64,000 nucleotides of DNA from the NCBI GenBank assembly GCA_043804695.1, contig JAZDIV010000043.1:1-64000 (forward strand), in the 5' to 3' direction. The position numbers were made by a program, and so were the translations under genes. The DNA is from PVC group bacterium (GTDB lineage: Bacteria > Auribacterota > Erginobacteria > Erginobacterales > Erginobacteraceae). Positions 3,669-39,350 of the stretch are shown one piece after another. The notes under the pieces were generated by a model. That model was not told the DNA's origin, did not search any database, and saw nothing but the letters and a program-made list of their open reading frames with translations. Position 1 is the stretch's first letter; each line of letters starts with the position of its first letter.

Positions 3669-3696
3669 CACCACGAAGGGCACGAAGTTCACGAAG
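3669..3696 (+). repeat. CACGAAG-family 9-bp-period repeat
   Basis: CACCACGAAGGGCACGAAGTTCACGAAG; related copies at 14119, 14302, 21796, 21838, 30613 and at both IS110 flanks. Confidence 0.8.
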
Positions 3697-30612: not shown

Positions 30613-30640
30613 CTTCGTGTCCTTCGTGACCTTCGTGGTT
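30613..30640 (-). repeat. CACGAAG-family repeat (3 units) containing an unoccupied IS110 target
   Basis: CTTCGTGTCCTTCGTGACCTTCGTGGTT on the + strand. Confidence 0.85.
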
Positions 30641-36619: not shown

Positions 36620-37780
36620 TCAATCCGCCTCCTTCTTTCCCAGCTCCCGCAAAGCCGTCAGGAAGGTTTGGGAGACTTCATCCCAGTTGATGAATCGTCC
36701 CTCGGACTGTTTCTTCCCGGCCCTGATCAGGGACCCGGCCGTATCGGGACCGTTCCGGAGATGCGCGATCGCATCCTGGATCGAGGAGGGATTCCAGGGA
36801 TCGAAGTACAGGGCCGCGTCCCCGCAGACTTCGTGAGCGAAGTCCAGATCGCTGGTGAGGATCGGCACCCCGTAGTGCATCGCTTCCAGATAACTTCCGC
36901 TGAATATCTCCATGAGAGAAGGCATCAGCAGGGCGTCCACATGACTGTAATAGTTAGCCAGTTCCGGTTGAAGCCACCGGGAGCCGATATTGATGATCTT
37001 CTTTTCCAGGTGTTTCTTCCTGATGTCGTCGAGAAGGCGCTTCACCGCCGATTGCTGATCCGGAGCCACGGTTATAAATAGAACGGTATCCTCCAATTGC
37101 TCCCGGTAGCGATCAAAGAGATCAACCAGAACTTCAATATTTTTATGAGGATAATATCTCGCGATATAAAAGAGCTTAAAGTGATCCGGGAATGGTTGGA
37201 ACTCCGGAGGGGGAGGTGTACCCGGGGAGACGGCGCGGGTAAATTCCGAGATAGCATTGGGGAGAATGATGGACCTACCCCGGTAATTATATCGGCTGCG
37301 GATGCGGCTATCCGTCACCCGGGTAGGAGTAAAGACAAGGCCGGTCCGGCGGAGATCCCGGGAGAAGACAAGTCGCTTGAGATAAATTTCGAATAACTCT
37401 TTTATACTGATCGAACGGCCGAAGTGACGGCGGGAATAGAGCAGATACGGATTAAGACAGATGATGGCCTGCGGGTAAAGCTTTTTCCCCTGGTATCCCA
37501 GGCTGGACATTCCCACGACAATATCCGGCCGGAACCGGTCCAGCCGTTTCGGAAGCAGCCGGTGATCGAAACGCCACCGCCGCGACCAGGAATGGTCGCG
37601 GAGAGGAATTATTTCCCGGTCCGGCAGGCTCTCGCAGATCGCCTCATAGCCGAGTCCTCCGGGTATGCTGACCAGATACCTCTCGCCGGGCGCGAGCCTC
37701 CCCAGGGCGGCAATGATGTTATGCCCCACCGATATCCCCCCTCCTCCCCGGAGGGCGTGGCAGAGTAATGCGATTCTCAT
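36620..37780 (-). CDS. GT4 glycosyltransferase
   Basis: HKNIE, MPSLMEIFSGSYLEAMHYGVPILTSD, EVCGDAALYFDP. Confidence 0.9.
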   Translation of the reverse strand: MRIALLCHALRGGGGISVGHNIIAALGRLAPGERYLVSIPGGLGYEAICESLPDREIIPLRDHSWSRRWRFDHRLLPKRLDRFRPDIVVGMSSLGYQGKKLYPQAIICLNPYLLYSRRHFGRSISIKELFEIYLKRLVFSRDLRRTGLVFTPTRVTDSRIRSRYNYRGRSIILPNAISEFTRAVSPGTPPPPEFQPFPDHFKLFYIARYYPHKNIEVLVDLFDRYREQLEDTVLFITVAPDQQSAVKRLLDDIRKKHLEKKIINIGSRWLQPELANYYSHVDALLMPSLMEIFSGSYLEAMHYGVPILTSDLDFAHEVCGDAALYFDPWNPSSIQDAIAHLRNGPDTAGSLIRAGKKQSEGRFINWDEVSQTFLTALRELGKKEAD

Positions 37781-37930
37781 TCAATTACCTTTAAAAACAA
37801 TTCTAACCACGAAGTTACCATGTAGACTGCAAAATAAAAAGCCAGTCACTCGCAATGGGTTTTAATGGGGATAAAGATCAAGTATTATAGACGAACGTTT
37901 ATAAACCCCCAAACCCAAAGAGGACTGGCT

Positions 37931-39037
37931 ATGAGTAACTATATCATGGTCGGAGCTGATGTCCATGACAAAGACATTTTGATAAAGGCGGCTCACAACC
38001 GCGGCAATCCGGTTCAGCAAACGTTCAATAACACTCCCGGCGGCAGAGAAAGAATGATAGCAGCGTTGCAGGAACAGGCAGAGGAAGCCGGTAATGCTAC
38101 TGTTGTTTTCGCGTATGAAGCATCGTTTCTCGGATTCGGCCTGTACGATCAGATGACCGATGCCAGGTTTGAGTGCCATGTGCTGACACCGACCAGAATT
38201 GCCCGATCGTCCACACACCGTAAGAGGAAAACCGATGCCAGGGATGCCGAAAGGCTCTTGGAGGTGATCCGAGGACATATCTTGGCCGGGAACGATCTGC
38301 CGTCGATCTGGATCCCCGATCTCCAGACCCGGGATGACCGGGAATTGGTTCGGATGCGTCTGGATGTCGGGAAAAAGATCACCTCGATTAAAAGTCAAAT
38401 ACTTGTCCTGCTGAAACGAAACAATTTCCGCAAGCCCGCAAAAACAGGAAGTAACTGGACCAAAAAACATCGTGTCTGGCTGGCTGAGAGCGCAAAACCG
38501 GAATCGGCTTTGCCAGGTGGTGCCCGGTGCGCGATGAACAGCCTGATGCGACAGCTGGAAGCATTGGAGCAAGAAATCGTCTATCTGGACAAGCACATCC
38601 AGGATCTCTCGGGTGCACCGCGCTATGCGGAACCGGTTCAGGAACTGAAAAAACTCAAGGGGGTGGGCACTCTGACCGCCATGGCGTACCTGACCGAGAT
38701 GGGTGACCTGAGCCGATTCAACAATCGGCGCCAGATCGGCGCGTTCCTGGGGCTGGTACCGTCGAGCTCGGAGAGCGGCCAGAAAGATGATCGCAAGGGA
38801 CATATTACCCATCAGGGCTCCGGTCGGGTCCGGAAGGTGCTCTGTCAGGCCTGCAGGTCGAGAATACGCAACGATCCTCATGAGAAGGATGTGTATGGCC
38901 GAATTGTTGAACATAACCCAAAGCATAAGAATATTGCGGTTGTTGCTTCAATGCGCCGCCTGGCAATAAAAATGTGGCACCAAGGACTCAAAGCCCAGAG
39001 CCGGGCCGGCTCTTTTGAGGCCGCTGTCAATGGTTAA
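37931..39037 (+). CDS. IS110-family DEDD recombinase/transposase
   Basis: GAGGA RBS; VGADVH (D), YEA (E), KTDARDA (DD), GVG..TA, GLVPSSSESG (catalytic Ser region), VA.MRRL. Confidence 0.95.
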   Translation: MSNYIMVGADVHDKDILIKAAHNRGNPVQQTFNNTPGGRERMIAALQEQAEEAGNATVVFAYEASFLGFGLYDQMTDARFECHVLTPTRIARSSTHRKRKTDARDAERLLEVIRGHILAGNDLPSIWIPDLQTRDDRELVRMRLDVGKKITSIKSQILVLLKRNNFRKPAKTGSNWTKKHRVWLAESAKPESALPGGARCAMNSLMRQLEALEQEIVYLDKHIQDLSGAPRYAEPVQELKKLKGVGTLTAMAYLTEMGDLSRFNNRRQIGAFLGLVPSSSESGQKDDRKGHITHQGSGRVRKVLCQACRSRIRNDPHEKDVYGRIVEHNPKHKNIAVVASMRRLAIKMWHQGLKAQSRAGSFEAAVNG

Positions 39038-39137
39038 CGCCGCATAACCCCGTAATCGGAAAGGAAGAATTCCTTAAATACAAAGTATTCATTGTAGCAG
39101 GAGGTAGCTCGTTCGTCTGGATCGCCGATATCAAAAT

Positions 39138-39256
39138 GAGGGGGTGAAAGACCGTTTGTGTCCTGGGCCGATACCGGCCCGTCACGAAGTTTAGTCCGCC
39201 CCCGGCGTTCAGATAAACTGATCTCTCCACAGGAGACGATCGAATAGCAGGATGCG
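39138..39256 (+). ncRNA. Predicted bridge RNA/seekRNA core: target-binding loop (39138-39203) and donor-binding loop (39205-39256)
   Basis: TTGTGTCCT-hairpin-GTCACGAAG matches both target halves; AACT-hairpin-ATAGCAG matches the circle junction. Exact RNA ends are unknown. Confidence 0.82.
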
Positions 39257-39297
39257 CGACTTCGGCGAACCCAGCTAAAACCTGTTGCGATTTTTTC

Positions 39298-39303
39298 TTG
39301 ACT
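39298..39303 (+). promoter_or_regulatory. -35 half (TTGACT) of the IS circle-junction promoter; -10 half TACCAT at 37816-37821
   Basis: Joined ends read TTGACT-ggtatctacatagcagt(17)-TACCAT. Confidence 0.78.
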
Positions 39304-39350
39304 GGTATCTACATAGCAGGACACGAAGTTTTTATAAAATAAGCTACGTT

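Follow-up and report, generated by a model that had tools for sequence, protein, structure and literature searches.

Guides of a predicted bridge RNA covary with insertion sites in a clade of IS1111-type insertion sequences

Introduction

How does a recombinase of the IS110 family find its target, and can the answer be read from the DNA on either side of a single copy of its element? This question is raised by a locus in a 64,000-nucleotide (nt) stretch of DNA from an uncultured PVC-group bacterium of the phylum Auribacterota. Hereafter this whole stretch is called the window, and all coordinates are positions in it. Positions 37815-39319 very probably hold a structurally intact IS110-family insertion sequence of the IS1111 type, which encodes a DEDD/serine bridge recombinase and, downstream of the gene, a bispecific bridge (seek) RNA. 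A reading made from the sequence alone had matched short segments of the right non-coding end to both flanks of the element and placed an AG/CT core between them. Here we describe the anatomy and boundaries of the element, the covariation of its guides with the flanks and of its stems, and the identity of its target.

The class of mechanism is already published (Durrant 2024, PMC11208160; Hiraizumi 2024, PMC11208158; Siddiquee 2024, PMC11187229). Here and throughout, statements about published systems draw on portions of the papers cited. A right-end bridge RNA was predicted in 93% of the IS1111 elements in ISfinder (Durrant 2024), and the seekRNA principle was proved for four of them, ISEc11, ISPa11, ISKpn4 and ISPst6 (Siddiquee 2024). 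Within a limited check of the literature, the points that go beyond the published picture are only two: a left donor guide that appears to be lost across the clade, and a connection with arrays of short tandem units.

Results

Guides and flanks

The argument rests on the following features of the element and its two flanks.

37815-39319, + strand: whole element, 1505 bp including the right-hand copy of the AG core; termini conserved in relatives.
37808-37814, + strand: left target half CACGA with core AG; unit 1 of a tandem CACGAAG repeat, identical to the right target guide at 39183-89.
39320-39328, + strand: right target half GACACGA(AG); unit 2 of the tandem repeat.
39156-39164, + strand: left target guide TTGTGTCCT; pairs with AG plus GACACGA (39318-26).
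39183-39191, + strand: right target guide CACGAAG with handshake TT; identical to the left junction 37808-16.
39216-39219, + strand: remnant of a left donor guide, AACT, 4 nt, in loop 2.
39244-39252, + strand: right donor guide ATAGCAG with handshake GA; identical to the right junction 39313-21.

Both junction 9-mers, CACGAAGTT and ATAGCAGGA, are present in a 263-nt non-coding stretch; among 50000 mononucleotide shuffles of that stretch, none contained both and 120 contained either one. All motifs and coordinates of the sequence-only reading, including both junctions, the loops and their closing helices, proved correct when checked against the sequence. The mismatch that it had allowed in the left target guide is indeed a wobble, the guide making 8 Watson-Crick pairs and one U.G. 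The handshake dinucleotides TT and GA match the recombinant junctions, as it had said, and fit the rule of Hiraizumi 2024.

The decisive evidence comes from relatives. From a metagenome scan with a 40-sequence alignment we took the best 80 of 566 confirmed stretches, which together with the window give 81 elements (L-numbers denote the relatives' loci and G-numbers genomes). Anchors written as regular expressions placed the right target guide in 67 of these, the left end with its flank in 67 and the right end with its flank in 60; one anchor, the left end of L059, is probably misplaced. In 46 of 57 elements the right target guide agrees with the left flank at all five of its variable positions, and 25 distinct pentamers occur. 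The mean agreement is 4.70 of 5 bases, compared with 2.55 +/- 0.12 after permutation (maximum 3.05 in 5000). The left target guide was scored free of alignment, as the best 9-mer match in the 40 nt before the hairpin, and forms 6.63 of 9 Watson-Crick pairs with the right flank as against 5.48 +/- 0.11 when permuted (maximum 5.82 in 1000; n = 56), or 7.59 against 6.75 when wobble pairs are counted. Across the clade this guide is U-rich, tolerant and at times shifted by one base. On the donor side, the right guide is identical to the final seven bases of the element in 59 of 60 cases; in four of these, guide and end have changed alike. Both bases of the donor handshake equal the first 2 flank bases in 18 of 60 elements (7.5 +/- 2.4 expected), and in the target handshake TT stands against TT in 44 of 57. 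Covariation of guides with insertion sites in homologues, which the sequence-only reading had proposed to look for, is clearly positive. The loops may also be reprogrammable, as was supposed there, a suggestion that comes solely from the natural diversity of the guides.

RNA structure

The predicted RNA is organized as follows.

39038-39319, + strand: right non-coding end, 282 nt, containing the predicted bridge/seek RNA.
39122-39268, + strand: outer stem P0, TCGCCGA (39122-28) with TCGGCGA (39262-68), enclosing both loops.
39140-39203, + strand: target-binding arm, with P1 (39140-46/39197-203, GGGGGTG/CGCCCCC) and P2 (39150-52/39194-96, GAC/GTC).
39165-70/39175-80, + strand: loop 1 hairpin GGGCCG/CGGCCC, between the left and right target guides.
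39205-39255, + strand: donor-binding arm, with closing pairs GCG/TGC (39205-07/39253-55) and a hairpin (39220-28/39232-41).

Positions 39038-39320 fold at -100 kcal/mol (z = -3.98), a value equalled by none of 200 shuffles. The two-loop architecture is supported by compensatory changes in three ways. RNAalifold, run on 61 aligned sequences, gave 24 pairs, 15 of them with compensatory changes, and left both pairs of guides unpaired. The structure derived from the window (35 pairs) is paired in 79.9% of cells, compared with 71.4% in shuffled alignments; none of 500 shuffles reached any of five measures, and controls with the structure slid along the alignment gave 34-48%. Finally, an anchor-based recount found all seven P1 pairs in 49 of 67 loci and six in 16, with many compensatory variants and a mean of 6.66 pairs against 5.74 permuted; on the MAFFT alignment P1 is 55% paired, owing to a register shift. 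Among the other helices, P2 is 100% paired, the donor hairpin is 95.8% paired with 8 of its 9 pairs changed on both sides, and its closing helix is 96.7% paired. In P0, 4 of 7 pairs are changed on both sides and only 63.7% of cells are paired (MAFFT alignment).

A covariance model of the RNA (R1) scores 107 bits (E 1.1e-26) at 39132-39257, its sole copy in the host genome; a search with R1 for orphan guide RNAs in that genome found none, the second match having an E-value of 0.32. R1 matches in 4 of 79 genomes of the phylum, the host's own included. Four of the five foreign matches (L097-L100; G005, G007, G057) lie at contig ends, as one would expect if those genomes carry several copies of the element and their assemblies break at them. 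No Rfam family was matched, and two chance hits fell below thresholds. One of these, a Y_RNA hit on the minus strand, rides on a pairing in the left end, GCCAGTC (37841-37847) with GACTGGC (37923-37929). The latter segment lies between the ribosome-binding site and the ATG, so that, as the sequence suggests, this pairing could mask translation on read-through transcripts.

Boundaries of the element

The remaining parts of the element are these.

37815-37930, + strand: left end, 116 nt, with the TTACC terminus, the ATGTAGA repeat, a leader and a ribosome-binding site.
37917-24, + strand: ribosome-binding site AAAGAGGA, within the left end.
37931-39037, + strand: recombinase gene, 368 aa, with a DEDD RuvC-like domain and a Transposase_20 domain.
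39298-39303, + strand: TTGACT, a -35-like hexamer 16 nt before the right end, with a putative promoter function.
39308-39314, + strand: right sub-terminal inverted repeat TCTACAT, the counterpart of ATGTAGA (37820-26).

At the left junction, AACCACGA (37805-12) is followed by AG (37813-14), TTACC (37815-19) and ATGTAGA (37820-26); at the right junction, TCTACATAGC (39308-17) is followed by AG (39318-19) and GACACGAAG (39320-28). The sub-terminal inverted repeats are perfect over 7 bp, a length within the range of the IS1111 group (7-17 bp), lie 5 nt inside either end and are conserved among relatives. The non-coding parts are unequal, with 282 nt downstream of the recombinase gene as opposed to 116 nt upstream. 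Conservation among relatives has its left boundary at TTACCATGTAG and its right boundary at CTACATAGCAG (n = 60), and the flanks beyond vary. In the left end, columns 1-10 (TTACCATGTA) are 94-100% conserved and column 11 (G) 86% (n = 67); AG precedes the left end in 64 of 65 elements and closes the right end in 60 of 60. The target halves, joined into 14 nt (37808-14 plus 39320-26), occur uninterrupted 12 times in the host genome, where 0.02 occurrences are expected, and a further 22 times with one mismatch, so the empty target that the sequence-only reading had reconstructed exists in exact copies. With the conserved termini and these 12 uninterrupted targets, the boundaries and the AG/CT core, as first proposed, can be regarded as settled. 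CACGAAGTT is found in the right flank as well (39321-29), because the target is itself a tandem repeat.

One relative, L045, carries its right end, a single AG and then 72 of 72 nt of its own left end (L045:1566-1758). This joint is either a tandem copy or a circle-type or circle-derived joint. The left flank of L045 matches its own guide at only 2 of 5 bases.

The element is present once in its own genome (88% complete, 155 contigs). Two GT4 glycosyltransferase genes, both on the opposite strand, flank it, and it lies upstream of the gene at 36620-37780, 34 nt from that gene's start. An empty site was sought in relatives; at the syntenic loci of G001, G006 and G008 identity is only 65-73%, and the spacer is unalignable. 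Two DNA sequencing runs compared with the stretch yielded four short contig pieces inside the element and no joints.

Target arrays

What kind of sequence, then, does the element enter? Its natural target is the point where unit 1 meets unit 2 in arrays of tandem 8-9-nt repeats, which are dispersed and mostly arranged head to head; the present site has two units. The host genome contains 280 arrays of at least two C[AG][CT]N[AG]AG units, compared with 85 in a shuffled genome. At least three units are present in 155 arrays, of which 90 form 45 facing pairs with a median gap of 43 bp; the opposite order was found 0 times. The pentamers of the first unit (CACCA in 71 arrays, CACTA in 29, CACGA in 15, CACGG in 14) are the guide pentamers of the relatives. 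Correspondingly, one unit lies to the left of the element in 45 of 48 relatives and one to three more lie to its right in 36 of 48. The clade is not restricted to arrays, as 12 of the 48 target other sites (L025, L031, L054, L058, L060, L070 and others), that of L031 being a G+C-rich palindrome. The window itself contains three-unit CACGAAG arrays at 3672-3696 (+ strand) and 30613-30637 (- strand); in the latter, an exact and unoccupied 14-nt target is found at 30615-30628.

The left donor half

The sequence-only reading had noted a weak left donor guide in this copy. The guide is weak, and this is a trait of the whole clade and not of this copy alone. Searched at the place where a 9-nt left donor guide would be expected, the best 9-mer matches at no more than 7 of 9 positions in 56 loci; 3 reach 7 and most lie at 5-6. 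An alternative site in the non-coding end is not conserved either, with 6 matches in 48 loci, 4 of them in the window and its three closest relatives (L017-L019). From these sequences, recognition of the left donor half by RNA appears to be weak or lost across the whole clade.

The recombinase

The recombinase matches PF01548 (2.7e-12) and PF02371 (6.6e-21) and has homologues along its entire length (2409 proteins at E <= 1e-30, the best 83% identical). Across an alignment of 40 homologues D10, E63, D102, D105, E281 and G283 do not vary, and conservation of S282 is at least 90%. The ESG at 281-283 aligns with that of ISCro4 (9t56). The second match in the PDB is IS621 (8wt6), in which S241 has the role of catalytic serine (Hiraizumi 2024). 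A KTDxxDA motif also aligns to ISCro4, in a weak N-terminal alignment, and the motif GL-P----S(T)G is present as GLVPSSSESG. The nearest named plasmid-borne relative is ISEc45, at about 33% identity.

A scan of species-genome contigs gave six loci at about 30% identity, in Rhodobacteraceae; they lack a match to R1 and were set aside. Also set aside, as a second copy, was a locus of the G000 genome (C110:18831-19031, L093) with a weak partial Transposase_20 match (27.8 bits, in a 175-aa open frame), which tblastn shows to be unrelated to the element. It is probably a remnant of another IS110-family element.

Discussion

Based on these findings, we propose a cycle for the element that follows published models for RNA expression, circle formation, promoter function and chemistry. 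If the guides are read on the strand that is opposite to that of the gene, the core becomes CT, and all four guide positions and both handshakes then obey the rules of IS621. The 5' side of loop 1 would pair with the core and right flank and its 3' side with the left flank and core; the 3' side of loop 2 would pair with the right end of the element and the core; and the two bases after each 3' guide would serve as the handshake, matching the recombinant junctions. By analogy with IS621 and ISEc11, the element would be excised as a circle, whose joint of right end, AG and left end would be the donor site. The circle joint would bring TTGACT, as a -35 box, and TACCAT, as a -10 box, to a distance of 17 nt, so that recombinase and RNA could be made. 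TTGAC plus any base stands at a fixed distance before the right end in 48 of 60 relatives; TACCAT, bases 2-7 of the left end, is a putative -10 box by its sequence. A junction promoter of a comparable kind has reportedly been described in a study of ISEc11. The RNA-protein complex would then pair donor and target and exchange strands at the core without duplicating the target, again as in IS621 and ISEc11. Of additional note, a promoter-like site on the - strand (37938-37965; TGGACA, 16 nt, TATAGT, 10/12, with TG) lies inside the start of the recombinase gene and points towards the glycosyltransferase gene that lies downstream; sites of this kind are no more numerous in the region than expected by chance.

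Could the guides or the boundaries have been misread? If the 3' non-coding end were a mere structured 3' untranslated region or terminator, its flank matches would be accidents. Such a view finds some comfort in the lack of an Rfam family, and it is contradicted by the covariation, in which 25 distinct guide pentamers track their flanks; in addition, no shuffle reproduced both junction 9-mers, a terminator-like site was not found, and covarying helices flank the guide loops. We consider it very improbable. No more credible is the notion that the 9-bp direct repeat CACGAAGTT (37808-16 and 39321-29) marks a target-site duplication or a shifted crossover. The 9-mer does stand at both ends, as this would require, and the tandem-array target accounts for it. 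Conservation among relatives ends exactly at ...ATAGCAG and begins at TTACC, with variable flanks on either side; the joined 14-nt target is found uninterrupted in the host genome; and in L045 ATAGCAG is directly joined to TTACC. The corollary that AGGACACGA would be element DNA, and that the "left target guide" would read donor DNA, meets the same evidence and is just as hard to believe.

Two further alternatives concern what an intact element does, and they are harder to dismiss. One is that the copy, structurally whole, does not transpose in this host, which we think possible and on balance unlikely. One copy faces 12 exact free targets, no + strand promoter-like site is present when it is integrated, and the neighbouring genes run on the opposite strand. 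Against this, the reading frame is full length with all family-invariant residues kept, and all guides still match their flanks without decay. Moreover, in this family expression is expected from the circle joint only, so that silence in the integrated state would be normal; and repeats are often missing from assemblies such as this one, which is 88% complete and split into 155 contigs. The other alternative is that the bridge RNA has three guides and that the left donor half is read by the protein via the sub-terminal inverted repeats, or by DNA structure. The poor matches at the expected place, mostly 5-6 of 9 positions, the lack of a conserved alternative site anywhere in the non-coding end and the near invariance of the donor ends all speak for it, as does the observation that many IS1111 RNAs have donor-binding bases in a multi-loop (Durrant 2024). 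Three loci nevertheless have a good guide at the expected place (L026 with GGTAACT, L089 and L021), 4 nt including the core remain in the window, and the match counts leave bulged and wobble pairing out of account. On balance we judge the three-guide proposal less likely than not.

A bispecific bridge RNA in an intact element remains our preferred reading, and several observations weigh against it. The left donor guide of this copy has only 4 nt. The left flank is not matched perfectly in 11 of 57 elements (1-4 mismatches, the probably misplaced L059 among them). The loci were taken from the top of the similarity ranking and include related, hence non-independent, copies, so the permutation figures overstate independence. 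When the integrated copy was searched with a simple sigma-70 scan, its + strand yielded no promoter-like site, and there is a single genomic copy despite 12 exact empty targets; the copy may be inactive or a recent arrival. Lastly, the minimum-free-energy fold joins the two target guides to each other, pairing 6 of the 7 bases of the right one, which suggests that loop 1 may be closed in the free RNA. The mutual complementarity of these guides follows from the target being a direct repeat. The idea that this loop is closed solely in array-targeting members was rejected, the difference being small (4.2 compared with 3.0 guide bases paired).

How does this system compare with those already known? 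With the IS1111 seekRNA elements it shares a guide RNA downstream of the gene, sub-terminal inverted repeats, the GL-P----S(T)G motif and the order of the guides, a segment complementary to the top strand lying 5' of one complementary to the bottom strand; this strand reversal is the published difference between IS1111 and IS110 seekRNAs (Siddiquee 2024). It differs in the size of the recombinase (368 aa, as against the 330-350 aa quoted for the family), in its target, a tandem array of short units, and in its host, an uncultured Auribacterota bacterium. With IS621 it has in common two internal loops, four core-including guide positions, the CT core, 2-nt handshake guides 3' of the right guides, a DEDD plus serine active site and a repeated extragenic element as target (Durrant 2024; Hiraizumi 2024). 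Unlike in IS621, the RNA is located in the right end here, and relative to the gene the complete arrangement of guides falls on the other strand. The present element also has longer inverted repeats, almost no left donor guide and a long outer stem around both loops. Similarity between the two proteins is detectable only in the C-terminal domain (E 6.5e-7).

The closest parallel to the arrays comes from Geobacter metallireducens, in which ISGme8 and ISGme9 lie at a fixed distance from class 1 sites made of tandem octanucleotides, and class 2 sites consist of three repeats with the consensus TCTCCGTS[Y] (Aklujkar 2009, PMC2700814). Like the arrays described here, these are paired, facing and intergenic, with 3-4 short tandem units and insertion sequences at a fixed distance, and the CACGGAG unit that 14 of our relatives target is the class 2 unit in reverse complement. 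The portions of that paper dealing with the arrays interpret them as regulator-binding sites and do not invoke guidance by RNA; ISGme8 is grouped in that paper with IS492, not with the clade described here. Durrant 2024 includes ISGme8 in its table of IS110-family recombinases. Homing to a repeated sequence is a trait that the element also has in common with IS4321 and IS5075, which are likewise IS1111-type with sub-terminal inverted repeats and differ in their target, the terminal repeats of Tn21-family transposons. Partridge and Hall are said to have described these two elements, with their sub-terminal inverted repeats and this target, in 2003.

Taken one step further, the three-guide RNA, with its left donor half read by the protein via the sub-terminal repeats, may be combined with target loops that have diversified together with the units of head-to-head arrays. 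We offer this combined picture as a conjecture and consider it rather doubtful. If it is true, the arrays, which occur in several phyla and include the Geobacter class 2 type, would be dedicated landing pads of RNA-guided insertion sequences, and the mutual complementarity of the two target guides would be explained. The element adds a compact lineage of bridge recombinases, with a 368-aa protein and an RNA of roughly 120-200 nt, from an uncultured PVC-group bacterium. Its clade amounts to a natural reprogramming series, in which 25 right target guides are set on an almost constant donor; such a series would be useful for choosing or engineering orthologues and for the question of how IS1111 elements recognize the left donor. 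Dispersed head-to-head arrays of short units, which have so far been without a function, also gain a concrete biological partner.

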